A DNA stretch of 64,000 bases from Phycisphaerae bacterium (GCA_028289375.1 JANQQK010000086.1:41679-105678), one strand, 5' to 3'. Counted from the first letter of the stretch, positions 6,411-42,047 are shown. Notes: generated from the letters alone by a model not told the origin. A program made the numbers and translations.

Positions 6411-7199
6411 CTACGCCATCGCCCGCCCCGCCCATGCCGCCAGCATGTCTGATACAAAGGCGGCGTCTTCGGGTTTGGAAAGCAGATGATCCGCACTGCC
6501 AAGCGAAACGAAGCTCTTGGGATGCTTGGCCCATCCGAATATCTGGGCTGCATGGTCGATGCCAACGATCGTGTCGACCGGCGAGTGGAATATCATCAAC
6601 GCCCGTCGCAGCGAACCGATCACGTTCCGTGCATCCTGCTCGCGCAAGTCGTCGAGCAACGCCTTGCCCAGCATGAAAGGCCGACCACCGATCGACACCT
6701 CCGCCTGTCCTGTCTCCTCGATCGAAGACGCCGCAGGCCCGATCAGGCGCATCACATGTTCCGGTTCGGCTGGCGCTCCGATCGTGGCCACCGCTTTGCA
6801 CGCTGCGATCTTCGACGCGGAAAACAACACCGCAGCCCCACCTAGCGAGTGTCCGACGAGCAACGCCGGTGCCGACCGATTCTGCCGCAGCCAATCGGCG
6901 GCGGCCAGGAGGTCGCCAACGTTCGATGAAAACGTAGTTTGCGCAAACTCACCTTCACTTTGTCCAAGTCCCGTGAAATCGAATCGCAGCACGCCGATCC
7001 CGCGCTCGGACACTCCCCGCGCGATCCGCGTCGCGGCCAGAATGTCCTTGGAGCAAGTGAAACAATGTGCAAACAGCGCGTACGCCCCCGCACTTCCACC
7101 GTTTGGTTCGTGCAGGCGTGCAGACAAGGTGTGCCCCAACGACCCGACGAACTCAATCTTCTCAGCTTCCACACCAATTCCTTCCTTGAATGCCGCCAT
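6411..7199 (-). CDS. Alpha/beta hydrolase (type often fused to OsmC)
   Basis: AHCFTCSK, RFDFTGLGQSEG, nucleophile GHSLGG, HSPVD, ADHLL. Confidence 0.9.
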   Translation of the reverse strand: MAAFKEGIGVEAEKIEFVGSLGHTLSARLHEPNGGSAGAYALFAHCFTCSKDILAATRIARGVSERGIGVLRFDFTGLGQSEGEFAQTTFSSNVGDLLAAADWLRQNRSAPALLVGHSLGGAAVLFSASKIAACKAVATIGAPAEPEHVMRLIGPAASSIEETGQAEVSIGGRPFMLGKALLDDLREQDARNVIGSLRRALMIFHSPVDTIVGIDHAAQIFGWAKHPKSFVSLGSADHLLSKPEDAAFVSDMLAAWAGRAMA

Positions 7200-7304
7200 T
7201 GGTGCAGCAGCAGTCTCGAAAATCAGTAGCGATTTGAAACCACACCCCTTCGATCGATGATATCATAGTGGCCAGCGGGAGACTCGATGAATTGACGTCA
7301 CGTA

Positions 7305-7760
7305 TTACGCCAACCAAACACTGGCAACGGCGGTGACAACCCCGAGTACGATCACGAAGGCCGCCAACATGTAGTTCGGTGGTTCCTTGGCCAGTGAGCG
7401 TCCATGCTCCGTGGCTTTCAGGGCACGCAAACCCTGCCCGCCGTAGACCGCAGCAGCCAACCCACCGAGACCACCCACCACGAGCGTGATGCTGGTCAAC
7501 TGTCCAAACGCCGTTAAGGCGGCCACAACGGCCGAGGTCAACCCGATGGTTAACCCCAAACGCACCTGATCATTGGCCTGCCGCAGCTCCGTTGCTTCCC
7601 GACGTGCGCGCCGCGATTCCTCGCGCAGCTCGCCCATGGTGGCTTGGAATCCACACTCCGGACACTTGAGCGTCGCTAGACCGCGCAGGTCATATCCGCA
7701 TTCTGGACAACGCGGCGGGCGTTGCTCAGTCCACTCATCGGCGGCGACTGCCCGGATCAT
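7305..7760 (-). CDS. Zinc-ribbon membrane protein
   Basis: CPECGYDLRGLATLKCPECG followed by about 3 hydrophobic helices. Confidence 0.7.
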   Translation of the reverse strand: MIRAVAADEWTEQRPPRCPECGYDLRGLATLKCPECGFQATMGELREESRRARREATELRQANDQVRLGLTIGLTSAVVAALTAFGQLTSITLVVGGLGGLAAAVYGGQGLRALKATEHGRSLAKEPPNYMLAAFVIVLGVVTAVASVWLA

Positions 7761-7763
7761 GCC

Positions 7764-8798
7764 CTATCCCCAGGACCAACTGAAACGATGCTTGAAATGG
7801 TGGTAGTACAGACCGATCATACGCATGGCCACCACCATGCCATAAACACTTGCAACGGACACAAGCACGGAAGCGCCGAATGGGTTCTTGCCGGCCTGAT
7901 GAGAGTGCACGGCATCTGCTGCAAGCGAAGAGCCGATCAATGCCCCACATACAAGTGCGCAAGTGACAAGGTATGGCACTGCCGTCACGAAGATCGTACG
8001 AAGTATCAGTACCGGGTGCATCAACGCACCCAACCCACCCACAGCAGCCATCAGCATGATCATCGGGAACATCAATCCACCGAGGATGACAAACAAGAGC
8101 ACCATCTCATCAGGGTTGTCCAACGTCGGGCCAATCCCTCCCATGATGAGAATGGCGTAGCAGATAAGCGGAAGCATGCATAGCGCAGAAACACCGATGA
8201 ACTTCAGCAACGGGAAGATGATGCCGTCTATCCAGCCATCAAAGAAGTTCATATCGGGAAGATCTTTCTCGCCACCGGCGGCATGCAGAACAATGTTGAA
8301 GTAGTAGGCACACAACCATCCGTTCACGATGATCGAACCGACAAGCCCGAGACATGCCGCAAATGATAGCAACGACTGGACAGCCCCCATGACACACAGG
8401 GTGATGATGTTTGCCAAGTTGCCCGGATTCGTGATCAACAGGCAACTACCGCCGACATCCTTGATGTAAGCAGACCAGTGCTGTGCCATCGAGCCAATCG
8501 CCCCACCGCTCGGAGCACCCCGCATCTCATCCGCTTCTTCGGCCATGGCAGCGCGGCGTTGGGCTTCGGCGCGCTGTCGTTCCTGACGCTCCGCAGCGCG
8601 TGATGCGGCGCTCGATGCTTCGGCAGCCAACGCAGACCATACGCCTGACTCTTCTTCAGTGACCTCCGCCGCAACCTCTGCCGGTTCGACATCTGGCAGT
8701 TGAATCGCGCGTTGACAGTTCTTGCATTTGACACGCTTGCCGGCCAACCGCTCAGGAAAGGTATATTGGGCGCCGCATTGACAGGTCACGATTGACAT
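7764..8798 (-). CDS. Zinc-ribbon + multi-TM (DUF4013-like) membrane protein
   Basis: N-terminal CQCG...CKNC, charged helical linker, about 6 TM helices with a G...LPD loop. Confidence 0.7.
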   Translation of the reverse strand: MSIVTCQCGAQYTFPERLAGKRVKCKNCQRAIQLPDVEPAEVAAEVTEEESGVWSALAAEASSAASRAAERQERQRAEAQRRAAMAEEADEMRGAPSGGAIGSMAQHWSAYIKDVGGSCLLITNPGNLANIITLCVMGAVQSLLSFAACLGLVGSIIVNGWLCAYYFNIVLHAAGGEKDLPDMNFFDGWIDGIIFPLLKFIGVSALCMLPLICYAILIMGGIGPTLDNPDEMVLLFVILGGLMFPMIMLMAAVGGLGALMHPVLILRTIFVTAVPYLVTCALVCGALIGSSLAADAVHSHQAGKNPFGASVLVSVASVYGMVVAMRMIGLYYHHFKHRFSWSWG

Positions 8799-9028
8799 GG
8801 GTTTCTCCGCGTTAAGCCGCGCATCCTAACTCATGGACTACTGCAGCAACGAATATAAACAATGTCTCAATTTGGAACACGCACGTCAGAATGTGTGTAT
8901 TCGCGACGTGCATCAGCCAGAGCAATACCAAACACAAACCTAACATTTAATGTGGTTCGGAATCGTCTGACGATCGCCGAGTGCCAGAGAGACGCTTGGA
9001 GGAATCGCGGCCGCCGTCGCGATCGGCC

Positions 9029-9044
9029 TGTTTCACGTGAAACA
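9029..9044. promoter_or_regulatory. parS centromere-like site
   Basis: Perfect palindrome TGTTTCACGTGAAACA, the canonical parS consensus, upstream of parB. Confidence 0.93.
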
Positions 9045-9127
9045 CATCTGGTTATTGCGAATCTGAGCTTGCGTTCTCGGCAGGCCTGACTAATCTGGGA
9101 GGATCGGCTCGGGTGTCAAATCGCACT

Positions 9128-9143
9128 CGTTTCACGTGAAACA
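9128..9143. promoter_or_regulatory. parS centromere-like site (second copy)
   Basis: CGTTTCACGTGAAACA, 15/16 match, 14 nt before the parB ATG. Confidence 0.9.
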
Positions 9144-9157
9144 ACGCCCTATCAAGG

Positions 9158-10150
9158 ATGACCGCCATGCAGAAGAACGAGAAGATCAAATCCCGGCGTT
9201 TGGGACGTGGATTGCAGGCATTATTATCGGGCGATGAAGAATCGCCAGCAGAATCGACCCAAGCGATACCATCAACAGAATCAGTAGAATCGCCCCCACG
9301 GGAAGCCAGAAGGCCCATGCCCGCCGATGCCCGGCATCGTCTAATCCCGGTCGGAGAGCTTCGACCCAACCCATATCAACCTCGTACAGAGATGGATCAG
9401 GAGTCGATTGATGAATTGGCCAGGTCGATCGGTCAATCCGGCGTGATTCAGCCGATCCTGGTTCGGCTGGTCTCTGACGGTTACGAGATCATTGCCGGGG
9501 AGCGACGTTGGCGGGCATCGAAACGGGCCAAGCTCAAACAGGTTCCAGTCATCGTCCATGATGCCAGTGACGAGCAGATGCTCGAATTGGCCATTGTCGA
9601 GAATATTCACCGGCGAGACCTCAACGCCATCGAGCGTGCCCAAGCCTATCGGCGATACTGCGACGTGTTTGCACTGTCAGCAGAGAAGGTGGCGGAGCGC
9701 CTTGGCGAGAATCGGACGACCGTGATCAACTTCCTGCGCCTTCTCGAGCTTCCCGGCGAGATTCGCGACCTGGTCTCAAACGGACAGCTCAGCGCTGGTC
9801 ATGCACGAGCTATTCTGGGCGTTCCCGGGGAAGGCAAGCGGATCGAGATTGCCAAGAGGGCGATCAACCTGGGCTGGTCGGTCCGAACGATCGAGGACGT
9901 GGTTCGGAAAGCCAAGGAAGAAAAACCAACCCAATCAACCAGCAAGAAGGCCCAGCCGCCCAAGAAGGAGTCGTACCTCAAGTCACTGGAGAACCGGTAT
10001 GCCGAACGATTCAAGTCGAAAGTGGCGATCCAGATGACAGACAAAGATGCCAACATTGGAAGGCTGGTCATCGAGTTCTACAGCCTCGAGGACTTTGAGC
10101 GCATTTCCGAGTTGGCTGGCGTTGATGCCGACCTGTCGGACGATGACTAA
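9158..10150 (+). CDS. parB: Chromosome partitioning protein ParB/Spo0J
   Basis: LGRGLQALL (ParA-interacting peptide), NPYQPR, IIAGERRWRA (CTP-binding motif), ENIHRRDL, HTH, GHARA. Confidence 0.96.
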   Translation: MTAMQKNEKIKSRRLGRGLQALLSGDEESPAESTQAIPSTESVESPPREARRPMPADARHRLIPVGELRPNPYQPRTEMDQESIDELARSIGQSGVIQPILVRLVSDGYEIIAGERRWRASKRAKLKQVPVIVHDASDEQMLELAIVENIHRRDLNAIERAQAYRRYCDVFALSAEKVAERLGENRTTVINFLRLLELPGEIRDLVSNGQLSAGHARAILGVPGEGKRIEIAKRAINLGWSVRTIEDVVRKAKEEKPTQSTSKKAQPPKKESYLKSLENRYAERFKSKVAIQMTDKDANIGRLVIEFYSLEDFERISELAGVDADLSDDD

Positions 10151-13145: not shown

Positions 13146-13546
13146 TCTGCAGACTCAGTGTCGCGGAGTTCGCCGCATCGCCAACATTGGTCGAATTGGC
13201 CTTCGATGGTTTCGCCGCAGGTGGTGCAGTGCCAGGGTGTGGCACTACGGAACTCGGTGCCGCATTCGGGGCAACGAGGCTCTTCGGTTGCACGAAGATC
13301 GTAACCGCAGTTGGAGCATTGGTCCGGATCGAAGCGGCGTTCGTGTTCTTCGATCAATGTGCGGGCGCGTTCGACGTCCTCTTCGGCCACGTGGACGGAG
13401 GGGGCGGACTCGGTGGTGAATGGGAGTTCACCACGAGCGCCCCATAGCGTTTCGCCCTGGATGACGGCTTGAATGCCGTGGTTCTCGAGCATGCCCCGGA
13501 CGAGGTGAACCTGGGTCGGGTTCGCGGCTGTGTAGACCTTGACCAT
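13142..13546 (-). CDS. DUF2007-like signal-transducing domain + zinc ribbons
   Basis: VYTAANPTQVHLVRGMLENHGI...VAEEDVERAR, then CSNCGYDLR...CPECG and WHCTTCGE...FDQCWRCG. Confidence 0.8.
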   Translation of the reverse strand: MVKVYTAANPTQVHLVRGMLENHGIQAVIQGETLWGARGELPFTTESAPSVHVAEEDVERARTLIEEHERRFDPDQCSNCGYDLRATEEPRCPECGTEFRSATPWHCTTCGETIEGQFDQCWRCGELRDTESAE

Positions 13547-31635: not shown

Positions 31636-32628
31636 TTAGAACGCAATCGACCACTGGATGTTGGTCGACCAGCGAGGTCCTTCCTCGAACCCGCCATCGG
31701 TGTCGTTGTAGCGAATGCCCAGCTGCAGTTGCTGCGTGTCGCTGAAGTGATGAACCCAACCCATCTCGATGCCGTTGGTGGTCTTGTTGCCATCGTAACG
31801 GCTGGAGCGGTTCATGTAGTTGATCAAGAGCAGATCCTGATCGCTCAGTGCGAAATCCATACCGAGGCCGACGCCCCACTGGAAGTCACGACGGTCACCG
31901 ATGCTGATCTGGTTGTAGTCACCCTTCGAGCCGTTGGCCGTCATGAGGAAACCAGTCAGGTGACCACGAATGCCGTCCCAGAGCGTCTTGGTCAGGTTGA
32001 AGTGGAGGGTGGCGTCGAACTTCTCAGAGTTCTCACCCGACGGAATGCGGATCTCGGACCACATGGCGAAAGCCGGTGCGAGGCCCTGCTCCTCGAACAA
32101 ACGCCAGAACATTTTGAAGTTCAGCTCACCAAGGCCATCCTTGGCATTGTCATCATCTTCGAAGAGGCCGGTGTTGTCGTTGAAGTCCTCAACGCCTTCG
32201 ATGCGCGAGCCGTCGCCGAAGTTGATCGGCATGACCTGCAGCTCGATGTTGAAGTCGTCGGTGATACCGTACTTGATGCTCGGGGTGAGGGTGATGTTGT
32301 CGTCGTTGCCATCACCAGACTTCCAGATGTCCCAGCCGAGGGCCAACTCGAACTGCCACTGACCGGCACCGACGTTTGGATTCGCTTCACGAACCTGGAA
32401 GATGTCATCGACACCGCGATAGCCATCAACCACGACATCACGCTGATAGGACTCGAGGACAGGCAGCTCGATTTGGGTCTTGCCCCACTTGAAATCGATC
32501 ATCTGGGCCGATCCGGAGTCCGACTTGCTCATTTCGCCATTGCCGTCGCCATTCTCCTGGGCGAAAGCGACTTGGCACGACAGAACCAACGTACAGGCAA
32601 TACTCATGCGCCAAAACTTCGACAACAT
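31636..32628 (-). CDS. Outer-membrane beta-barrel (transporter/porin-like)
   Basis: Signal peptide ending AFA-Q, alternating amphipathic strands, C-terminal WSIAF; SD GGAGG before ATG 32628. Confidence 0.75.
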   Translation of the reverse strand: MLSKFWRMSIACTLVLSCQVAFAQENGDGNGEMSKSDSGSAQMIDFKWGKTQIELPVLESYQRDVVVDGYRGVDDIFQVREANPNVGAGQWQFELALGWDIWKSGDGNDDNITLTPSIKYGITDDFNIELQVMPINFGDGSRIEGVEDFNDNTGLFEDDDNAKDGLGELNFKMFWRLFEEQGLAPAFAMWSEIRIPSGENSEKFDATLHFNLTKTLWDGIRGHLTGFLMTANGSKGDYNQISIGDRRDFQWGVGLGMDFALSDQDLLLINYMNRSSRYDGNKTTNGIEMGWVHHFSDTQQLQLGIRYNDTDGGFEEGPRWSTNIQWSIAF

Positions 32629-32939
32629 GTTCCATTTCCTCCAACACATCAGAATTTCGTTGTGGGGCGTCGCCCGCGCCGGCTCGCCCCGTATTGACCG
32701 CTTTGCACCCGTATGCTGAGCGCTGGGGGGTATATCGTCAACCCAATTCACATTCCGCCACCAACTTTTTCACTCTTTCTTTGCCTGTAAGGGCGGTTTT
32801 CGGCTCGATTATCGGTCATTGCGACCTCGGTACGTCCAGCCGAGCGACTCCGTGCCTCTTGGCAACACCAGAATATAGGTTATCTGGGAATCGAGAGGCG
32901 TTTGGGCAAGCAGGAATGGCCTTGTCCTCGTTGATCCGG

Positions 32940-35381
32940 TCACGGATTGTCCGACCGAGGGTCGGCGTCGTGTTTTGCAATCGCATCGTGGATGGCTTGG
33001 TCTCGGGCGTTGATCGCCAAGGCCAGCTTGCGGGCGAAATCCTGAGCGTCGATCTCCCAGGGCGGTGATTCCCTCGGGGTCTTTTCGAGCATGGCTAACA
33101 AGCTGCGGTACCGGATCGCGTCACGCAGAGCCGCATAATGAGGTGCCTCGTACACGACGAACGGCTTGTCGTCGGTATTGAGCGCCGCCCCTTCGACGTA
33201 TTTGGCGAGACCAGCGGGGCCTGTGATCAACAAGCCCTGTAGTTTCGCGTCGGAATCAAGACCAATGTTGTCCAGAGCTTCGCGCAACGCCGACATCGTC
33301 ACGCGTCGGGCGTGGTACCCATTGCCGTAGGTCGGCCACTCGTCGCGGACGCCGACCAAACCCACCACCGGGTTGTTCAGTTCAACATCGTGCATGATGG
33401 CGCGGCTGTCTGGAAACACTTCGAGGTACGTGCGAATGATCGCGCGCGTCGTCGGCTCGTCCAGCTGGTACATGGGCAACCACTGGACAAAGAGGCCGCC
33501 GGGCGAGAGTCGATCGTGGATCGCACGAAAGTGTTCCAGGGTGTAGAGCATTCCTCCTCCATCGCGGGCGGGGTGAAACAAGTCGGCAGTAATCACGTCG
33601 TAAGATTGATCGGTGGCGCGCACGTAGCGCCGTGCGTCGGCAGCGCGGACATTTACATTTGGAGCATCCGCCAGTGATCGGCCTTGGACTTCGAAAAACG
33701 GTAGCGCCGCCACAACTTCGGGGACCAATTCGACGGCGTCTGCCTGAAGGCCTGAGTGGTGGGTGGCGGCGAGGGCGGTGATGCCCGTGCCGACCCCCAA
33801 ATAGAGCGCCCGGCGGGGTTCTGGGTGAAGCAATAGCGGAATATGGCCCAAGCGCTGTTCCGTGCGAACCGTCCGCGGACTCGTGCCGCCCATCCGATAG
33901 CGGTTGTTCACGCGGAGAGAGTGGCCGTATTCGTCCTCGGTGACAGCGACAGATGCCATAACACCCTCGCGGTAATGAATGACCCGTTCCCGCTTCGAGA
34001 TGCGGGTAAGACGGAGGTCCGACGGAAGCAGGAGGAACGCCACAACGGGAATCAAGAACAGCCAGCTGATCTTTCGTGGATGGGCGATCAACGTCAGGTA
34101 CCCAAACGAGACCGTAACGAGTGTCCAGCAGGTGCCGAGGATCGGAACAAGAACCACGCCGAACAGGAGTGGTGCAAGGAATCCCCCAGCAGTATTGACC
34201 GCCACGGCAGCACCGACGCCTCCGTGGCGCCCCTTTGCCGCTTGGGCAAGGTGGCTGAACATCGCCCCCATGAGCAGCGTCGGCAGGCCAAACACTGCCG
34301 CTGCGACCGTCATCTCGCTGATTGCTACCCCGGCCAATCCGTCGCCCAGTGTCAGCCTGCACGCATGATATATTTCGCGGCTCCAGGCAAGGCCGATACC
34401 GCCGACCATGCCCAGTGTCGCCAATCCGAGCAGCAGGTAACTCAGCAAAGTATCGAACGCGATCCGTCTGCCCCATCGTTGGTAAGCCGCCGCCCCTGCC
34501 GCAGTCCCCAGCAGGAACACCGCAAGCGCGGCAGCGTAGCTATACACCGTGTTTTCAATGACCTGGGCGAGCACCCGCAGCCCGACGATCTCATAGCCAA
34601 TGCCAAGCAGACCGGTCACGCCGAGCATGAGCAGCAGGTGCGGGCGCGTCCTTGGCGACACTTCAGACGATGTTTCGACGTCGGAAGAATGGGCTGGATC
34701 GGTCGGCGATTCAGTTGAGACACTTTGTCGAAGTAGTGGCAGCATCATTGCCGCGCACAGCAGGTCGATCCCCGCGAGCACCATTACCGTGGTTCGGTAA
34801 CCGAGCACGGGTGCCAACACGAACGCCCCGATCAAAGTGCCGATGACCGCACCGAGCGTATTGACCGCGTACAACCCGCCGAGGCATCTTCCGTCGCGCG
34901 CGAATGGCGCTGCGAACCGTTCCATCGCCGGCAACGTGGCTCCCATCGCCGCCGTGGCGGGCAGCAGCACCACAAGAGGAAATCCAAGCGAGACAAGCCA
35001 CTGCCAGAGTGGACCTGGCTGTTCCCCCATCAGACGCAATGCCAACCCATTGGCAGGCGTCACAAGCCACACACAAGCCAGCCCCCAGAGGCCTATGATC
35101 AGCTCCAGCCCGACGTACCAATGTCCCGGTCGCGCGCTGTCGGCGATTGGCCGATCCAGGGCCCACGCCCCCAATGCCAACCCCCCGAAGAACGCTCCGA
35201 CGACGGCGAGTGCCGCCGGCAATTCGTGGCCCAGCCCCACGGCAAACATTCGCACGAATGCTGTCTGGTAACCGAGTCCCGCCACGCCTGACAGCAGGAA
35301 GATCGCATAGAGGCACGCAATCTGTCGTCGACGATGCAACCGATCCGGCATTGGTGCGAACGTACCCCTGATTGCTTGCAA
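32940..35381 (-). CDS. Fused multi-TM (MFS-like) / spermidine synthase-like protein
   Basis: SG.AGLGY, MGATLPA, LYAVNTLGA TM repeats; C-terminal LYLGVGTGIT, VELVPEV, DARRY, YDVITADLFHP, QWLP. Confidence 0.9.
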   Translation of the reverse strand: MQAIRGTFAPMPDRLHRRRQIACLYAIFLLSGVAGLGYQTAFVRMFAVGLGHELPAALAVVGAFFGGLALGAWALDRPIADSARPGHWYVGLELIIGLWGLACVWLVTPANGLALRLMGEQPGPLWQWLVSLGFPLVVLLPATAAMGATLPAMERFAAPFARDGRCLGGLYAVNTLGAVIGTLIGAFVLAPVLGYRTTVMVLAGIDLLCAAMMLPLLRQSVSTESPTDPAHSSDVETSSEVSPRTRPHLLLMLGVTGLLGIGYEIVGLRVLAQVIENTVYSYAAALAVFLLGTAAGAAAYQRWGRRIAFDTLLSYLLLGLATLGMVGGIGLAWSREIYHACRLTLGDGLAGVAISEMTVAAAVFGLPTLLMGAMFSHLAQAAKGRHGGVGAAVAVNTAGGFLAPLLFGVVLVPILGTCWTLVTVSFGYLTLIAHPRKISWLFLIPVVAFLLLPSDLRLTRISKRERVIHYREGVMASVAVTEDEYGHSLRVNNRYRMGGTSPRTVRTEQRLGHIPLLLHPEPRRALYLGVGTGITALAATHHSGLQADAVELVPEVVAALPFFEVQGRSLADAPNVNVRAADARRYVRATDQSYDVITADLFHPARDGGGMLYTLEHFRAIHDRLSPGGLFVQWLPMYQLDEPTTRAIIRTYLEVFPDSRAIMHDVELNNPVVGLVGVRDEWPTYGNGYHARRVTMSALREALDNIGLDSDAKLQGLLITGPAGLAKYVEGAALNTDDKPFVVYEAPHYAALRDAIRYRSLLAMLEKTPRESPPWEIDAQDFARKLALAINARDQAIHDAIAKHDADPRSDNP

Positions 35382-35429
35382 TTGGCTGGGGCTTGGGTGC
35401 TCTACGCGTGGATCACTTCGGCAGCCTGG

Positions 35430-36092
35430 TCAAAGGGCGCATGGCGCAAGCGCGCTACCACGACGACTGAGCAGGATCGCCCCGCCGAGCATTCCGAAGG
35501 CCATGGCCAGCATCCCCCATTCTGATACGGTTGGGACGATGGCTTCGCCCGCCTCCTGATTGGTGAAACGCATCTCAAATGGGGCGGATTCTGTGTATCC
35601 GGTCGACCCCGAATCGACGAATTTGAAGGTGGCCAACCACTCGGTGGCCGATGGGTTGAAATCCGGATCATTCGAATCGGCGTGCCAGGTCAGGTGTTCG
35701 TGCAGATTGTCACTGCCAAGCGTTATCTGCTCGCCGGACTCATCGATTAGCGTCGCAAGCCCAGGTCCCCATGCCTTGAAGGCCGGGTCGATCGAGATCA
35801 CTTCGATCGAGATAATGGCGCCGGGCTCAAGTTTCAGAAAATCATTCTCCGGGTCGTCGATAACTTCCTCGGCATCGAAACCCGGGTTACCGTTCGTGAA
35901 TCCATCAAGGATTCCGTCAACGGGGCACAGCAGAACCGAATCACCGAGCGAAAATTCGGCATCGCCGATGACGAGTTGGCCAGCGGCTGTCCGTCCGATC
36001 AGCACATCGCTGTGCTCGCCGCATTGGGCGAGGACGGAGGGTACGAAACTGGCAGTTAAGATGATCGCAAAGCACGCATTTCTCAATCGCAT
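35430..36092 (-). CDS. Secreted His-motif protein with IPTL-CTERM-like sorting signal (paralog A)
   Basis: Signal peptide; EHSD, PVD, NPGF, IDP, LHEHLTW; tail IVPTVSEWGM-TM-RR. Confidence 0.8.
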   Translation of the reverse strand: MRLRNACFAIILTASFVPSVLAQCGEHSDVLIGRTAAGQLVIGDAEFSLGDSVLLCPVDGILDGFTNGNPGFDAEEVIDDPENDFLKLEPGAIISIEVISIDPAFKAWGPGLATLIDESGEQITLGSDNLHEHLTWHADSNDPDFNPSATEWLATFKFVDSGSTGYTESAPFEMRFTNQEAGEAIVPTVSEWGMLAMAFGMLGGAILLSRRGSALAPCAL

Positions 36093-36195
36093 CGTGTCTT
36101 CTCCCAGGGTTGAAATGGATTGCCAGGAACCGAACGAAGCGGAGATGGGCGATCACCCATCTCCGCTCGTCGCAGTCTTCTTTCCCGTCCGTTGG

Positions 36196-37080
36196 CTATG
36201 CCTTGACGCGTCTGTTGCCAGCGATCATGAGACCAGCCACCAGCAGAACGCACAGGAGCATCATGCCGCTGGTTGAAACCGTCGGGACGGGCTCAACCTC
36301 TGCAGCGGCACAGGTGCTTGGTGTACAGGGCACGTTTTCGCCCATGAAGACACCGCCCTCGTCGGCGCAGTGGTCTTCGTGCTCAAATTCGCACTCGCCA
36401 TCCGGCAGACAGCAGGCGCCGGGGACCTCGCATGCATCAGCCGAGCAGGTCGATCCTTCGCCGAGGAATTCGCCACCCTCGTCTTCACACGCTTCCTCGA
36501 ACTCACCATCCTCGCACTCCCCGTCCGGGAGGCAGCAGGCGCCAGGCTCGGCACACACGACGGTCGCGGTCAAATCTCCCGTCGGATCGCACGTGCCACT
36601 TGGGTCGAAGAGGCGGAACGTGAAACTATAGGTTCCGTCCGGATCCCACGCTGCATCCATCGAGTCGATATGCCACGTCGGGTGGACATCGAACGGGACG
36701 GTACCGATCACGAAGGTCTCGCCGGGCGTGTCGATCGTGTCGCCAAAACCGGGTGTGTAAATCACAAGCCCGGGATCGATGGAAACGAGCTCGAACGCGA
36801 TCTCGGTTCCGTTCGGCAGCATAAACAAGCCCTCATCCGGCTCATCCTCGTCAAGCGTCATGAACCCGGGATCGTCCAAAGCGCAACCGAACAGCAACGG
36901 TCCATCGACCGGCGGCACTTCGAACGCGTCATCAAAGTCAAACTCCACTGCGATTTGGTTCGTCGCCGTCTTTCCCACCTCCAGATCCGCATGTCCGTGC
37001 TCGTCGTCGTGGTCATGCTGACCAAACGCAGCCGGATGGCAGAGTGCAATGAGCACCCCAGTCACAAAAACAGTACGCAT
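36196..37080 (-). CDS. Secreted His-rich protein with Cys repeats and IPTL-CTERM-like signal (paralog B)
   Basis: QHDHDDEHGHAD, PVD, DPGF, IDP, FDVHPTW; two GACCLPDGEC...EGG.F.G repeats; tail VPTVSTSGM-TM-RR. Confidence 0.8.
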   Translation of the reverse strand: MRTVFVTGVLIALCHPAAFGQHDHDDEHGHADLEVGKTATNQIAVEFDFDDAFEVPPVDGPLLFGCALDDPGFMTLDEDEPDEGLFMLPNGTEIAFELVSIDPGLVIYTPGFGDTIDTPGETFVIGTVPFDVHPTWHIDSMDAAWDPDGTYSFTFRLFDPSGTCDPTGDLTATVVCAEPGACCLPDGECEDGEFEEACEDEGGEFLGEGSTCSADACEVPGACCLPDGECEFEHEDHCADEGGVFMGENVPCTPSTCAAAEVEPVPTVSTSGMMLLCVLLVAGLMIAGNRRVKA

Positions 37081-37103
37081 GTCGCTTCCTCCTAAGTACG
37101 CGA

Positions 37104-37913
37104 TTATTCCGAACCTCCGAATTGCACCTGCAAATCGGCGAAGTCCAAGAGATCAACATCAAGGTCGTCGTCGAAGTCGAATGCGTTGTGGCATTCGACT
37201 TCGCAATCGGTAATGGCGGGATCGTCCGGCATTGGACGCACGTCCGGCCCCGCATAGCAATGAGCAAACGCTTGAAAATCCGTCAGATCGACGGTGCCAT
37301 CGGTATCGAAGTCGCCGTTGGCGGGTATGTCGGCAGGTGGAAAGACCCCACCACGAACGGGAACATTGGCAAAGAGCAACGTAAACGCCCCCGAGTCGTC
37401 CAGGTTGCCGGTGAGATCGACGAAGTTGAAGGTGGTTTCCCAGACACATTTGGTCTCATCAAACAGTGGATCCTCCTCGTCGACGAACCACGTAATGTGT
37501 TCGTGCAGATTGGAGCCACCAAGGACGGTCCTGTCGCCGGGTTCCGTTAGGAGCTGGAAACTGTTGTCGATCACAACGAATGCGGGGTCGACCTCGACAA
37601 TCTCCAACGCAACTTGCACGACCGGCGGGAGAGGCGTGACGCCGTCCACTGTCGTGACGACATGGTCGAAACCGGGGTCGTTGTCAGACCAGCCCTGGAT
37701 AAACGTATCAACTGGACCCAAAGGGTGATAAACGGACTCGGGCTGCAAACCGACTGGATGCCACGCGACGCGACCCTCCTTCTGACCGATCCACATGTCG
37801 GCGTCGTGCTGTGCTGAAGCGATCTCCGGGCGACTGAGCATCATCACCAACACAGCCATCGAGAAACCGATGAACACTCGGCAGCGCGTGTCAACGTGCG
37901 ATTTCAGGGTCAT
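37104..37913 (-). CDS. Secreted His-motif protein with dockerin/EF-hand-like tail (paralog C)
   Basis: QHDAD, PVD, DPGF, VDP, LHEHITW; tail GDFDTDGTVDLTDF...DFDDDLDVDLLDF; SD GGAGG before ATG 37913. Confidence 0.78.
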   Translation of the reverse strand: MTLKSHVDTRCRVFIGFSMAVLVMMLSRPEIASAQHDADMWIGQKEGRVAWHPVGLQPESVYHPLGPVDTFIQGWSDNDPGFDHVVTTVDGVTPLPPVVQVALEIVEVDPAFVVIDNSFQLLTEPGDRTVLGGSNLHEHITWFVDEEDPLFDETKCVWETTFNFVDLTGNLDDSGAFTLLFANVPVRGGVFPPADIPANGDFDTDGTVDLTDFQAFAHCYAGPDVRPMPDDPAITDCEVECHNAFDFDDDLDVDLLDFADLQVQFGGSE

Positions 37914-38649
37914 AGCGATTATGCCTCCAGACGATGTTCTGCAGCGAACTGTTTGCCTCATCGATCAGGTATGTTGCTTCGAACACGTGCTTCTCCACGT
38001 GTCCGTCGAAGTAGGAGTAATTCGATGATTCGAGGTGGCGTTCGAGTTCAACTTCCTCACCTGCGAGCCTGCGGGGGTTGGACCACCACGTTTCCGGGTG
38101 TACGTGATCCGACACGGCGAAGGGGCCGACCTCGGCGATTTCGACCATGTGGATGGTGGTGCTGGATCGGCGAATCTTGCTGAGCATGTTGTAGGGGCCG
38201 CGGTTGCCGATCGCGGCGACGGTGTAGTAGTTGGTTCCGTAGCTTGTGCGCCGAAGTCGCGGCTGGTCACCGCCAGTGTTTCCCGGCCCGCTCGCGCCTG
38301 TCGTCGTGGTTGTGCTCGGATTCACGGGCACCTTCCAGTGCGTGCTGCGATCCTGCGGGCAACGTGCGATTCGCTCGTCACGTCCGTAGAAATCCTTCAG
38401 TGTGTTGATCCAGGCAGCGTGCTCGTTGCCAACGCCGCCGTGCGCCAGTCCGGCCCCGATGATGCGGTCTTCGTTCTCGTTGGCGTAAAGATGGACGGCT
38501 TGCATGAGGCTTCGCATGTTGCTTGCGCAGGCTGTGGTTTTCGCGGCCTTGCGGGCGCGCGAGAATTGTGGAAGAAGAACGCTGACCAGCAATCCAATGA
38601 TTGAGACCACGACCAGTAATTCGATGAGAGTGAATCCTTGCTTGCGCAA
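37891..38649 (-). CDS. Prepilin-type N-terminal cleavage/methylation protein with H-X9-DG motif (DUF1559-like)
   Basis: G|FTLIELLVVVSII, ARKAAK...CASNMR, RCPQD, SDHVH, H-LESSNYSYF-DGHV; TTG 38649 (SD AAGGGGAG) preferred over ATG 38673. Confidence 0.9.
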   Translation of the reverse strand: MRKQGFTLIELLVVVSIIGLLVSVLLPQFSRARKAAKTTACASNMRSLMQAVHLYANENEDRIIGAGLAHGGVGNEHAAWINTLKDFYGRDERIARCPQDRSTHWKVPVNPSTTTTTGASGPGNTGGDQPRLRRTSYGTNYYTVAAIGNRGPYNMLSKIRRSSTTIHMVEIAEVGPFAVSDHVHPETWWSNPRRLAGEEVELERHLESSNYSYFDGHVEKHVFEATYLIDEANSSLQNIVWRHNRYDPEIAR

Positions 38650-38765
38650 AGCAAAACTCCCCTTATTCGGCATTCGCTGAAATCAAATTGGGACGGAGTT
38701 CCGACGCAAGCACAGGGCGTACGTGGATCCCCTCGTGGACGAACGAAAAGGGCTTACGAGTTGGG

Positions 38766-39137
38766 CTAGGCAGTTGGGGGAGCACGCGGAAGTCGGCGGG
38801 CGCTGACTTCGGTTGCCGTGGGGATTTGTGCATCGATCGCATGGGATCGACGTACGGCGGCGCCCTCAATTTCGAGGGTTGGTGTCACCGCAATGGCGGC
38901 ACCTGACCAAGTGCTCAACAAATGGCATGTCTGGCAATCATGATCATGTCCGTCGCGCTCTTCGGGAACGGACTCGGATTGGTGATCATGGCAACTGTGC
39001 TCATGAGCGTGGATATGTGCATGATCAGGCGCACCATGAACCGTCGACACGTGGACAAACTTGGCCACGCCCGGCGCGAGCAACGCAATGGCTGCCAAGC
39101 AGCACAAGCTTGTTGTTTTTTGCAGCGCTCGGTTCAT
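38766..39137 (-). CDS. DUF2946-like His-rich leader protein with CxxC and C-terminal RAPP
   Basis: N-terminal hydrophobic segment, HAHIHAHEHSCHDH, HDHDCQTCH, terminal RLPRAPPTA*. Confidence 0.8.
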   Translation of the reverse strand: MNRALQKTTSLCCLAAIALLAPGVAKFVHVSTVHGAPDHAHIHAHEHSCHDHQSESVPEERDGHDHDCQTCHLLSTWSGAAIAVTPTLEIEGAAVRRSHAIDAQIPTATEVSARRLPRAPPTA

Positions 39138-39147
39138 ACGTGGGAGG

Positions 39148-39176
39148 ATTTTAACGATTGGCGAAAGTGAATGCAA
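39148..39176 (-). promoter_or_regulatory. Sigma70-type promoter of the RAPP-leader operon
   Basis: Minus strand TTGCAT-N17-TAAAAT, ending 10 nt before ATG 39137 (near-leaderless transcript). Confidence 0.65.
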
Positions 39177-39320
39177 ATCGTTCATGATTGCGTTTGCGGG
39201 GAAAACGGGGTCGATCTGCGTTCCCCGGCGGCTTGAAAGCGACTGCTATTGAATGATTTGCTCGATTTCGATGTGTGGATGATGTCCGCCTCGTGGGAGA
39301 ACCCGTGATTCCAGTGTCAT

Positions 39321-39341: not shown

Positions 39342-39388
39342 ATTCGAGTTCACAGGTGGTAAGTAATTGTTTAACAGATGGATATGAA

Positions 39389-39463
39389 TCGGGGCGACTG
39401 GATTCGAACCAGCGACCTCTGCGTCCCGAACGCAGCGCTCTGGCCAGGCTGAGCTACGCCCCG
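39389..39463 (-). tRNA. tRNA-Pro(CGG)
   Basis: Minus-strand cloverleaf: acceptor CGGGGCG/CGCCCCG, anticodon arm CTGCG-TTCGGGA-CGCAG, T-loop TTCGAAT; CCA not encoded. Confidence 0.96.
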
Positions 39464-39523
39464 TTGTGAGTTTTATGCTAGACCTACTGTTGGGGAGTGT
39501 CAACGTGGGATGGGCGCGTTGCG

Positions 39524-41290
39524 CTAGGCCTTGGCGGATTGGGCGGTTTTGTCGGACGTTGGGTTGGACTCGGGGGTTGATTGGCCCAGGGCCGCACGAA
39601 CCAGACCGACGAACATTGGGTCCGGACGAAGAGGACGACTCGAAAGTTCGGCGTGGGCCTGGGTGGCAACGAAGTAGGGATGCACGTCATTGGGCAGTTC
39701 GAGAACCTGTGCGATCCGGCCATCCGGGGACTTGCCGGAGAATATCAGTCCCGCCGCCTCGATTTGCTCCATGTAGTCGGGACTGACCTCGTAACGGTGG
39801 CGGAAGCGGAGCCTGATCTTGGATGCGTCGCCGTACATAGCGGCGACGGTGGAGTGCGGCGTGAGTCTGACATCGTGGCCGCCGAGACGCATGTTGCCGC
39901 CGAGTTGGGTGATGCCGCGCTGTTCGGGCAGGATATCGATGACGGGATGGGCACAGTTTGAGTTGATCTCGGTGCTTTGCGCGTCTTCGAGGCCACAGAC
40001 GTTGCGGGCGAATTCCACGACGGCGATCTGAAATCCGTAGCAGAGGCCAAGGTAGGGGATGCGGTTTTCGCGCAGGTATTTGACGCACGCGAGCTTCCCT
40101 TCGACGCCCCGCGTGCCGAATCCGCCGGGGACAATGACGCCGTCGACGCCGGCGACGCGATCGGAGACGTTGGTCTCGTCGAGTTCGGTGCTGTCGATCC
40201 ACTCGATGCGAACCTTGGCTCCCAGGTGAACACCTGCGTGCTCAAGTGCCTGGATGATGCTGGCGTAGCTGTCGCGGAGAGAGGTGTACTTGCCGGTGAT
40301 GCCGATGGTGACGGGTTTGGCAGCTTCGCGAAAGCGTTTGATGTAGTTGTTCCAGATGTCGCGGCGTTCGTGTTCGCGGTCGGCGTTTACGCGGTCGCTG
40401 AGCTTGAGGTGGTCAAGGACGGCGGTGTCGATGCCGGCGTCGCGCAGCAATTCGGTGATAACATAGACACTGTCCACATCGTGCATGGAGAAGACGCGAT
40501 CGAGCGGCACGCTGGAGTACATGGCGATCTTCTCACGGACTTTCTTTGTGACAGGGTGTCGGGCACGGCAGGCAATGATGTGGGGCTGAATGCCGGCGCC
40601 CATGAGTTGCTTGAGGTTGAGTTGGGCGGGTTTGGACTTCTGTTCGCCGAGCATGGGCGGTTTCACGACGTAGGTAAGCGCGACGAAGCAGACGGAATTC
40701 GGGCCCTCCTCGAAGGCGAGTTCGCGGACGGCTTCGATGAGGTAGGCGTTTTCGACGTCGCCGACCGTTCCCCCGATCTCCACAAAGACGACGTCGGCGG
40801 CGCTGGCGACGGCCAGCTCGCGCAGGCAGTTTTTCACTTCGCCTGTCACGTGGGGGATCATCTGGACATCGCGGCCTAGGTAGCCGCCGCGACGCTCTTT
40901 CTCGAGCACGCGTGAGAAGACCTGACCACTGGTGACGAAATTGAGGCGGGACAAATCCTGATTGAGCATGCGCTCGTAGGTGCCGAGGTCCATGTCGCAT
41001 TCCATGCCGTCGTCGAGGACGAAAACCTCGCCGTGGCGGAATGGGTTGAGGGTGCCGGCGTCGCGGTTCAGATAGCCTTCAAGTTTGATGGGGGTAACAG
41101 AGAAACCCTTGTCTTGCAGAACCTTGGCGAGTGAGCTGGAGAAGATGCCCTTCCCGAGTCCGCTCATGACGGTCCCGAAAACGACGACGTACTTGCATTG
41201 GCCTGGCTTGTAGCCGGCGGGCATGGGGGTGTGGAATTCGGTGTCGTCGGAGACGTCGCTGATGGATGAGAGGATGTTTCGGCTATCCAT
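39524..41290 (-). CDS. pyrG: CTP synthase
   Basis: VMSGLGKG, GTLNPFRHGEVFVLDDG.E.DMDLG.YER, EIGGTVGD, VPGGFG.RG, GLCYG, RHRYEV; start ATG 41290. Confidence 0.96.
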   Translation of the reverse strand: MDSRNILSSISDVSDDTEFHTPMPAGYKPGQCKYVVVFGTVMSGLGKGIFSSSLAKVLQDKGFSVTPIKLEGYLNRDAGTLNPFRHGEVFVLDDGMECDMDLGTYERMLNQDLSRLNFVTSGQVFSRVLEKERRGGYLGRDVQMIPHVTGEVKNCLRELAVASAADVVFVEIGGTVGDVENAYLIEAVRELAFEEGPNSVCFVALTYVVKPPMLGEQKSKPAQLNLKQLMGAGIQPHIIACRARHPVTKKVREKIAMYSSVPLDRVFSMHDVDSVYVITELLRDAGIDTAVLDHLKLSDRVNADREHERRDIWNNYIKRFREAAKPVTIGITGKYTSLRDSYASIIQALEHAGVHLGAKVRIEWIDSTELDETNVSDRVAGVDGVIVPGGFGTRGVEGKLACVKYLRENRIPYLGLCYGFQIAVVEFARNVCGLEDAQSTEINSNCAHPVIDILPEQRGITQLGGNMRLGGHDVRLTPHSTVAAMYGDASKIRLRFRHRYEVSPDYMEQIEAAGLIFSGKSPDGRIAQVLELPNDVHPYFVATQAHAELSSRPLRPDPMFVGLVRAALGQSTPESNPTSDKTAQSAKA

Positions 41291-42047
41291 GGCTGGCCTC
41301 GATGGGGTTGGTGGTTTGGCGATGTCGTGAGACGAAGGCTTCGTAATCTTCCGGCGTATCGATGCCGACGGCGGCGGTCCTGACGACGCCAACGGCGATA
41401 TCGTGACCATGCTCGAGGACGCGGAGTTGTTCGAGACACTCGGTCTGTTCGATGGGCGTCGGGGCGAGAGCAGCGAGCTTCAAGAGGAACTCGCGCTGGT
41501 AGGCGTAGATGCCAAGGTGGAGATAGACCGGTGCGTGGTCCGGTTGTCGTGGATAGGGAATGCGACTTCGTGAAAAGTAGAGGGCGCGGTGTTGGCTGAT
41601 GACGACCTTGACGCAGTTCGGATCGTCGGGGTCGGCATCGAAGCCCGTGCGCTTCAGGTCGGCGAAGTCGCACGCGAGGGTGCCGATCGGATGTCCTGTG
41701 TCGGTCATCAGCTTTACGAGGGTATCGATCGAGGCGGGTTCGATTTCGGGCTCATCGCCCTGCACATTGATGATGAGATCGGCTTGAACCGCCTTTGCGA
41801 CTTCGGCAACGCGATCGGTACCCGACGGGTGGTCGGCACGCGTCATGGCGACGTTGCCACCGAATGAGCGTACAGCGTCGGCGATACGGTTATCGTCGGT
41901 GGCGACGATCACGTCATCGACGCACGCAGCGCGGGCGGCTTGTTCGTATACGTGCTGGATCAGGTACTTGCCGGTCTGATTGGCGAGAGGTTTTCCGGGA
42001 AAACGGGTGGAATCGTAGCGGGCGGGAATGACGACGATTGCCTTCAT
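41283..42047 (-). CDS. kdsB: 3-deoxy-manno-octulosonate cytidylyltransferase
   Basis: IPARYDSTRFPGKPL, SGTDR, NVQGDEP, ALYFSRS.IPY, HLGIYAY, LEQLR. Confidence 0.96.
   Translation of the reverse strand: MKAIVVIPARYDSTRFPGKPLANQTGKYLIQHVYEQAARAACVDDVIVATDDNRIADAVRSFGGNVAMTRADHPSGTDRVAEVAKAVQADLIINVQGDEPEIEPASIDTLVKLMTDTGHPIGTLACDFADLKRTGFDADPDDPNCVKVVISQHRALYFSRSRIPYPRQPDHAPVYLHLGIYAYQREFLLKLAALAPTPIEQTECLEQLRVLEHGHDIAVGVVRTAAVGIDTPEDYEAFVSRHRQTTNPIEASHG

Follow-up and report, generated by a model that had tools for sequence, protein, structure and literature searches.

A gene cassette encoding an arrest-peptide-type leader, a His-rich prepilin and ZepA-like secreted proteins: a candidate surface metal-capture system

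Genes and boundaries of the cassette

Six genes (g1 to g6) were identified on the minus strand of a 64,000-nucleotide (nt) stretch of DNA from GCA_028289375.1 (JANQQK010000086.1:41679-105678; the whole stretch is referred to as the window and positions are counted from its first letter), with intergenic gaps of 116 nt or less. An earlier note on this DNA had proposed that these co-oriented, close-set genes form a metal-responsive operon for capture at the cell surface; the minus-strand cluster and the features described for it were confirmed overall, and the interpretation was supported in part. The first five genes, referred to below as the cassette, are predicted to encode a DUF2946-like leader, a prepilin-type protein and three secreted paralogs which distantly resemble the exoprotein ZepA.

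The first gene, g1 (38766..39137, minus strand), is predicted to encode a leader of 123 amino acids (aa) of the CruR/CutF arrest-peptide type. The likeliest start is the ATG at 39137, just past the sigma70-like promoter match described below; a longer open reading frame (ORF) would begin at 39185. The N-terminus is basic and is followed by a hydrophobic segment (LCCLAAIALLAPGVA) which, judged by eye, is a putative transmembrane (TM) segment or export signal. As the earlier note had described, the protein is rich in His, contains a CxxC motif and ends in RAPP: a run with many His residues (HGAPDHAHIHAHEHSCHDH...GHDHD) precedes CQTC, and a further 46 residues lead to RAPP, which stands two residues from the C-terminus (LPRAPPTA). 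When 11 leaders were compared, CxxC and R(A/G)PP were found to be 43-46 residues apart in 10 of them (the leader of locus L029 has no CxxC), with R(A/G)PP 2-4 residues from the end; of 21 leaders, 11 carry RGPP in place of RAPP.

This layout resembles that of CruR (Bp2923) of Bordetella pertussis and CutF of Rhodobacter capsulatus, which are small exported proteins and, like g1, first-gene leaders with CxxC, a near-terminal R(A/G)PP and a long spacer. The hallmarks of the DUF2946/CruR family are an export signal, CXXC, and RAPP located three residues from the C-terminus; the two motifs of CruR are 45 residues apart, and both motifs as well as their spacing are needed for regulation (PMC9426467). 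DUF2946 leaders occupy the first position in the operon, and a long spacer to the next gene is usual (PMC9426467). Similarly, g1 is the first gene of its cluster and is separated from g2 by a presumably regulatory intergenic region of 116 nt (38650..38765, minus strand), the corresponding spacer ranging from 52 to 368 nt (median 163) across 19 loci. The cassette leaders differ from CruR and CutF in the score of g1, which is below the gathering cut-off of PF11162 (DUF2946), in the long His-rich tract ahead of CxxC, in the use of RGPP by about half of them, and in heading a pilin and PEP-CTERM proteins, where the CruR/CutF type heads a TonB-dependent transporter, a PepSY protein or a multicopper oxidase. 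The assignment of g1 as a DUF2946 leader was thus upheld by its motif spacing and operon position but not by its PF11162 score.

Sensing of copper by CruR through CXXC releases the arrest at RAPP, so that Rho termination can take place (PMC9426467); CutF stalls in response to copper, and an mRNA hairpin is opened as a result (bioRxiv 10.1101/2025.02.05.636593). RAPP and RGPP were the two strongest and most context-independent arrest cores in a study from 2025, the main text of which makes no mention of pilins, PEP-CTERM or zinc (PMC12992588). The cassette leaders share with ApdA, ApdP, ApcA and SecM (RAGP) a C-terminal R(A/G)PP core upstream of a regulated gene (PMC12992588); those proteins monitor Sec/YidC export, whereas the cassette leaders carry metal-ligand motifs and head putative metal-handling genes.

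The second gene, g2 (37891..38649, minus strand), is predicted to encode a prepilin-type protein related to DUF1559, and its prepilin N-methylation motif was recognised by both PF07963 (30 bits versus 21.2) and TIGR02532 (30.5 bits versus 16.3). The longer ORF reaches 38673; the TTG at 38649, which gives MRKQG|FTLIE, is favoured as the start because orthologs (MRRHAFTLVE, MKRRGFTLVE and others) align there and because a AAGGGGAG box lies ahead of it. Both of the motifs reported previously, DHxH (as DHVH) and H-X9-DG (as HLESSNYSYFDG), are present. In the head domain, numbered according to alignment A5, C1, C57, H30 (in HGG), E130, D141-H142-x-H144, W148, H165, Y171, D175 and H177 are invariant in 11 of 11 orthologs, five of these residues being His (H30, H142, H144, H165 and H177). 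The motif H-X9-DG, which we take to be defined as the family name states, was conserved in the form H-X9/10-D-x-H in all 11 orthologs, and DG was found in five of them.

The earlier assignment of g2 to the H-X9-DG/DUF1559 pilins was supported by the sequence motif and the prepilin motif, but not by hidden Markov model (HMM) matches of the protein itself, as there was no match to PF07596 (DUF1559) at E<=1 or to TIGR04294 at E<=0.1. Among 18 orthologs PF07596 was passed by four and matched below threshold by nine, with no match in the remaining five, which include g2 of the window; this spread suggests that the g2 subfamily represents a divergent His-rich branch of DUF1559. It has in common with the DUF1559/H-X9-DG prepilins of Planctomycetota the N-methylation motif and a C-terminal H-X9-D(G), and differs from the others in its additional invariant DH-x-H, HGG and final His, in being found mostly in one class and in being tied to an arrest leader. 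An AlphaFold2 (AF2) model of the pilin head was too poor for a fold search (predicted local distance difference test, pLDDT, 53.5), and a predicted complex of the head with Zn and the g5 domain received a score of 0.00. At locus L043 (G212:C32) the pilin gene is preceded by one for a 307-aa membrane protein with extreme His runs (...HHDHHDHHDGHADHHHGGHGGHGHH; 7477-8397) instead of an R(A/G)PP leader.

Genes g3 (37104..37913), g4 (36196..37080) and g5 (35430..36092), all on the minus strand, are predicted to encode secreted ZepA-like proteins, and a search of the window's own genome with g5 returned the other two as paralogs at E 5.9e-19 and 5.9e-17. The claim that the three share a His-containing secreted domain was borne out as regards the domain, but the shared His motif amounts to one invariant His in LH-x-H; a second His, shortly past the predicted signal-peptide cleavage site, is near-invariant only across the wider family. 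In an alignment of 24 copies of the domain, a near-invariant His and an invariant Asp were found just after the variable His-rich mature N-terminus, along with a PG(F) motif and a near-invariant His in (L/F)H-x-H. Three different tails are present: that of g5 is a sorting signal of the IPTL-CTERM type (TIGR04174, 24.3 bits, cut-off 20.5), that of g4 consists of two Cys-rich GACCLPDGEC repeats followed by an IPTL-CTERM-like tail below threshold (13.5 bits), and that of g3 of dockerin-like acidic repeats of the Ca type. The window's genome contains 14 IPTL-CTERM matches and four exosortase-family matches above cut-off. The Cys-rich repeats of g4 (GACCLPDGEC...C...GG-F-GE...C) lie in its C-terminal half (36196-36600), and three or four of them are present in the ortholog from genome G011 (L033).

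The AF2 model of the g5 domain (pLDDT 92.6) places the H-x-H on a predicted beta strand at residues 111-113. No Foldseek match to this model was obtained at E<=1e-3 (best approximately 8e-3), and the best VIA match (Z 7.4) is within the range which the tool calls non-specific; the weak matches are to generic beta sandwiches, namely fimbrial subunits and cupredoxin domains. An exhaustive profile search recovered 782 representative clusters at E<=1e-3, 446 of them at E<=1e-10. Among the 142 best single-domain-sized representatives, PEP-CTERM tails were found in 52, dockerin (Dockerin_1) in 22 and IPTL-CTERM in nine, and the named family members, from Phycisphaerae metagenome-assembled genomes, are annotated only as 'PEP-CTERM sorting domain-containing protein' or 'hypothetical protein'.

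The family-level link to a characterised protein is to All3515 (ZepA) of Anabaena, a Zur-repressed, zinc-binding exoprotein which is needed under chelator stress and has homologs in bacteria of the PVC (Planctomycetes, Verrucomicrobia, Chlamydiae) group; its downstream partner is given as not known (PMC10957091). The model NF040463 (all3515 family Zur-repressed PEP-CTERM protein) gave scores of 27.0, 25.9 and 21.4 bits with g3, g4 and g5, respectively, and E<0.01 with 78 of the 142 family representatives (best 1.7e-11). As these scores are far under the cut-off and the His triad of ZepA is absent, the paralogs are regarded as a distant sister family and not as members of the ZepA family. True ZepA proteins, with NF040463 scores over the cut-off, were found in none of 151 sampled genomes of the phylum and in none of 14 controls. 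The paralogs resemble ZepA of Anabaena PCC 7120 in their predicted secretion by means of a signal peptide, in their His/acidic N-terminal tail, in a predicted beta-sandwich fold without a close solved relative, in the PEP-CTERM anchor of their relatives, and in their association with FUR-family genes or boxes. They differ in that H-x-D and H-x-H are conserved at other positions, in the IPTL-CTERM (g5) or dockerin-like (g3) tails of the window copies, and in being accompanied by a pilin-like gene, the main text of the ZepA paper (PMC10957091) being without mention of pilins.

The single sigma70-like promoter proposed for the cluster corresponds to a TTTGCA-18-TAAAAT match at 39148..39177 (minus strand, 39177-39148), which ends approximately 10 nt ahead of the g1 ATG; the consensus match is present, but such matches occur at chance level (2 sites per 9 kb versus a shuffle mean of 2.3). 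The upstream boundary of the cluster is marked by tRNA-Pro(CGG) (39389..39463, minus strand; predicted with ARAGORN). Comparison of window positions 39387-41912 with the same-genus genome G001 (L077, G001:C83) revealed that the order tRNA-Pro, pyrG, kdsB is kept and that synteny stops exactly at the tRNA, beyond which G001 carries unrelated DNA; G001 also has neither the domain genes nor g6. The lack of the cassette in G001 and the break of synteny at the tRNA indicate that the cassette is accessory and is located at a tRNA-flanked variable site.

Conservation and distribution

A profile of the three secreted paralogs was searched against 40 relatives of the same order, where many additional matches were to C-terminal tails only; the domain proper was present in 14 of the 40. 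Fourteen loci, from 13 of these 14 genomes, were examined, and in 10 of them a g2 homolog (E 1e-22 to 9e-86) adjoins the domain genes. Immediately ahead of the pilin gene, each of these 10 loci has a small ORF whose product contains a TM segment and His residues, with R(A/G)PP at the C-terminus. The loci without a pilin gene are L025, L028, L030 and L033, the last of which is cut by a contig end.

The pilin-head profile (alignment A5) was also used to search 301 genomes sampled across the phylum, with 10 candidates scored per genome. Matches were found in at least 15 of the 301 genomes, and 13 of the 14 beyond the window's own genome belong to the same class. Among 17 further pilin loci a leader was present in nine. 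Taken over all 28 pilin loci, a leader lies directly upstream of the pilin gene in 20, most of them from the class to which the window belongs, probably Phycisphaerae. The flanking genes vary from locus to locus; what stays constant is a leader and a pilin accompanied by one to four secreted proteins, whose anchoring tails are PEP-CTERM, IPTL-CTERM or dockerin-like. The conserved core therefore consists of genes 1-5 only: with regard to gene neighbourhoods, the genes for the leader, the pilin and the secreted domain are conserved together in different genera, but g6 is not.

A second, divergent and complete cassette was observed in the window's genome (L040, G000:C66:30000-48000; 6622-9717, minus strand). 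It comprises genes for a very His-rich leader ending in RGPPLISWHI, a pilin (E 1e-37 to A5), a PEP-CTERM protein and a dockerin-tailed protein, and a gene for a Zn-type alcohol dehydrogenase lies just upstream. At L040, L041 and L049-L052, PEP-CTERM proteins with a resemblance by eye to the secreted domain (H-x-D, DEPGF, H-x-H) are encoded behind the pilin; as hmmsearch gave E values of only 0.005-0.19, they were not counted as members of the family.

An expanded cassette was found at L026 (G036:C61; 6108-11062), with a leader, a pilin, a 324-aa divergent domain protein, a 112-aa Cys-rich ORF and a second DUF2946-like ORF (PF11162, 20.9 bits), followed by a PEP-CTERM domain protein and a FUR-family regulator. 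Loci L027, L029, L031 and L032 encode secreted proteins of 510-610 aa between the pilin and the domain gene (for example L031:10971-12512); these begin with AQH-x-D...G, carry GGH-x-HP, have He_PIG and a dockerin or dockerin-like tail at the end, and look like an enlarged relative of the secreted domain. At L032 a tandem run of CTACA/CGACA pentanucleotides is located in the leader promoter region (approximately 13230-13290).

Candidate operator and zinc genes

A box of two self-palindromic heptamers, GTAWTAC-N3-GTAWTAC, was found at one leader promoter in each of five genera, on or beside the -10 or -35 element. In these five loci, which include L020, L021, L023 and L029, the box lies within approximately 60 nt of the leader ORF. 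Elsewhere in the approximately 650 kb of fetched loci it was present only in L025, upstream of another ZepA-like gene and with a nearby pair of sites, and genomes G002, G040 and G025 contain no match to it other than that at the cassette. In genome G028 the box lies 16 nt ahead of a ZupT-like ZIP gene, and it is also found upstream of an operon ending in an AztC/ZnuA-like binding-protein gene and upstream of a DUF1559 pilin gene. Its occurrence before the cassette, the ZnuA/AztC-like operon and the ZIP gene is a pattern resembling a Zur regulon, and suggests that the box is a candidate Zur-type operator for the window's order, with zinc as the metal concerned. At L026 a FUR-family gene directly adjoins a domain gene. 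The loci of G028 at which the box was observed are L024, L025, L057, L059, L062 and L063.

In the window's genome, a site with two mismatches to the box beside a znuA-like gene on contig C94 was considered and was not convincing. An 11-mer (ATTTTTGGAAT) is common to the leader promoter of the second cassette (L040 9718-9830, C66) and the promoter region of a ZnuA-type operon (L074 5589-5900, C94), a weak coincidence with a rough chance of approximately 0.02. Genes for the large and small subunits of a phage terminase were observed beside a znuABC-like operon, approximately 6 kb from a FUR-family gene, in L073 (G000:C64; 9673-11830).

Proposed function and alternatives

Considered together, the leader, the pilin head and the secreted paralogs are best read as an arrest-leader-controlled system for metal capture at the cell surface, most likely of Zn(II), a reading to which we give a probability of about 0.5. 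By analogy with CruR and CutF, the exported nascent leader would meet periplasmic metal through its His tract and CxxC; metal would then alter the duration of ribosome arrest at RAPP and so set the expression of g2-g5 behind the 116-nt spacer, shutting off the uptake system when metal is plentiful. From its sequence, the g2 product may undergo processing and become anchored in the inner membrane or assembled there, with the His/Asp cluster of its head exposed as a putative metal site. The products of g3-g5 would be attached to the cell surface through their tails, IPTL-CTERM (in relatives PEP-CTERM) or dockerin-like, and, if ZepA and the conserved residues are a guide, would capture metal through the N-terminal His tail, the conserved H-x-D and the H-x-H on the modelled beta strand. 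Capture at the surface would be followed by hand-over to the pseudopilin and import, each step of which we infer.

A more specific possibility is that the His-rich DUF1559-type pseudopilin is itself the metal carrier, passing Zn (or Cu) inward from exosortase-anchored ZepA-like proteins by way of a short pseudopilus or an inner-membrane anchor, with pilin-based import, switched by an arrest peptide that carries His and CxxC, replacing TonB-dependent receptors in Phycisphaerae; this we regard as unlikely. That a pseudopilin and surface proteins take the place of a TonB-dependent receptor, as the earlier note had it, we likewise only infer. Were the pseudopilin shown to be the carrier, a function would for the first time be assigned within the large expansion of DUF1559 in Planctomycetota, and the downstream partner that is missing for ZepA-type exoproteins would be at hand.

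A number of results weigh against capture of zinc under leader control. With regard to the leader, g1 scored 21.4 bits with PF11162 (E 4.6e-4) and missed the gathering cut-off of 23.7; since the miss is narrow and the match is aligned end to end (model positions 3-117 of 117), g1 is treated as having a CruR/CutF-like mechanism and as a borderline member of the HMM family. No leader was present at eight of the 28 pilin loci. A hairpin predicted over the g2 ribosome-binding site in the window was no better than in shuffled sequence (z -0.79), and across 19 loci pairing of the ribosome-binding site was 0.63 versus 0.61 in shuffles (mean energy z -1.0); as the RNA of the spacer is no more structured than shuffles, a shielding hairpin switch of the CutF type between leader and pilin is not supported.

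The link to zinc is weakened at several points. The NF040463 matches of g3-g5 are confined to model positions 138-227, in the globular part, and the cut-off of 75 bits is far above them; the ZepA triad H-X2-9-H-[FY]-H, searched as a regular expression, was found in none of the three window paralogs and in none of the 142 family members. The window contains no GTAWTAC-N3-GTAWTAC at up to three mismatches, its own promoter has no recognisable metal-regulator box, and its genome has three sites at two mismatches versus eight for a reversed-pattern control. Even in G028 the one-mismatch matches (10+9) exceed those of the reversed control (5+3) only about 2-fold. None of the four FUR paralogs of the window's genome is in the window, and its three ZnuA-type systems are also located elsewhere. 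Finally, the cassette is dispensable, as the same-genus genome G001 is without it.

The same architecture and leader mechanism could instead serve copper, with the leader sensing Cu through CxxC in the manner of CruR and CutF and the domains and pilin head acting in acquisition or periplasmic buffering of Cu(II)/Cu(I). Two observations which tell against zinc favour this alternative: both characterised DUF2946 leaders sense copper and not zinc (PMC9426467; bioRxiv 10.1101/2025.02.05.636593), and the weak fold matches of g5 include the cupredoxin domains of laccases, amicyanin and plastocyanin (Foldseek E approximately 8e-3; VIA Z 5.5-6.2). Operons headed by DUF2946 genes are, in addition, reported to be rich in the beta-sandwich copper proteins YcnI, CopC and PCuAC (PMC9426467; PMC12992588). 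However, those fold scores are in the tool's non-specific range (best Z 7.4), Cys and Met ligands are absent from the conserved residues of the domain, which are His and Asp, and the sole family-level sequence link is to a zinc protein, ZepA. The box regulon of G028 includes ZnuA/AztC-like and ZIP genes, and a long His tract before CxxC is not among the DUF2946 hallmark motifs in the available part of PMC9426467. Zinc is accordingly considered the most likely metal, ahead of copper, although not by much, and copper capture is the alternative that survives best, as a tentative one.

It is also conceivable, if rather improbable, that the cassette serves surface adhesion or matrix formation, the tailed proteins being structural, the pilin taking part in secretion or assembly, and the leader monitoring export, redox or envelope state. 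PEP-CTERM and dockerin tails typify proteins of the surface and matrix, the best fold matches of g5 are to fimbrial adhesins and pilins (Z 6.8-7.4), RAPP/RGPP leaders were first found upstream of Sec/YidC genes, where they are export-responsive (PMC12992588), and the cassette is patchy as well as dispensable. Such a role would leave unexplained the strict His/Asp clusters in the pilin head and the secreted domain, the His tract and CxxC of the leader at the CruR spacing, the similarity to ZepA, the FUR gene adjoining the domain gene in L026, and the box in common with ZnuA-like and ZIP genes.

The last gene of the cluster, g6 (32940..35381, minus strand), encodes the multi-TM/aminopropyltransferase-like fusion described in the earlier note, as confirmed by NF037959 (fused MFS/spermidine synthase; 75.2 bits versus 40) and PF01564 (41.4 bits versus 22.9). 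A full six-gene operon, in which this SAM-binding membrane fusion (SAM, S-adenosylmethionine) would produce or alter a small chelator acting together with the surface proteins, is the least probable of the alternatives: g6 is co-oriented and lies 48 nt downstream of g5, and its closest orthologs, in G017 (L031; 48% identity) and G157 (L052), which represent two different families of the class, again follow the cassette directly and form a close subgroup with g6, but g6 is adjacent to the cassette in these three loci only out of 28, the cassette genomes G010, G002 and G040 have merely paralogs of 27-34% identity on other contigs, G016, G028, G035 and G036 have no match at E<=1e-20, and no other biosynthetic gene recurs in the neighbourhoods. 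Motif I of g6 is GVGTG, and a segment ADLFHP is present; canonical aminopropyltransferases such as SpeE presumably have GGGDG and D-S-x-D-P at these places. In view of this adjacency g6 is placed outside the conserved unit, as an optional add-on to the cassette; its proposed membership of the unit was not upheld, and nothing points to the chelator synthesis or modification suggested for it.

Known relatives exist for every part of the cassette; the new variants are the combination of parts, the pilin subfamily rich in His and the sister family of ZepA. No description of a cassette of leader, pilin and ZepA-like proteins was found in the literature on DUF2946/CutF, DUF1559/H-X9-DG, ZepA and zinc, or pilins and PEP-CTERM in Phycisphaerae, supplementary tables being outside that scope; 'a few' DUF2946 genes are reported from Planctomycetes (PMC9426467). 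DUF1559-type pilin-like proteins are widely annotated in Planctomycetota, and no function for them is named in the titles or abstract openings of the literature found. A pilin subfamily locked to a metal-sensor-type leader and to ZepA-like proteins offers a concrete and testable function for such proteins. If metal capture under leader control is correct, DUF2946 arrest-peptide control would extend beyond copper and TonB-dependent systems, the idea of ZepA as a protein 'zincophore' would widen to a family of approximately 780 sequence clusters, and a candidate would be available for the partner which takes metal from ZepA-type exoproteins.

A seventh gene (g7) lies just downstream of g6, at 31636-32751 on the minus strand, with a likely start near 32634; it would encode a protein of 332-371 aa ending in ...WSIAF. 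There was no Pfam or NCBIfam match to this protein, no homolog of it in the other cassette loci, and no BLAST similarity (E 0.87) to a box-preceded outer-membrane-like protein of G028 with which it was compared. A language-model search placed g7 among 'transporter family' clusters, some of which carry PF13557 (Phenol_MetA_deg; score 0.97), and g7 is a probable outer-membrane beta-barrel.

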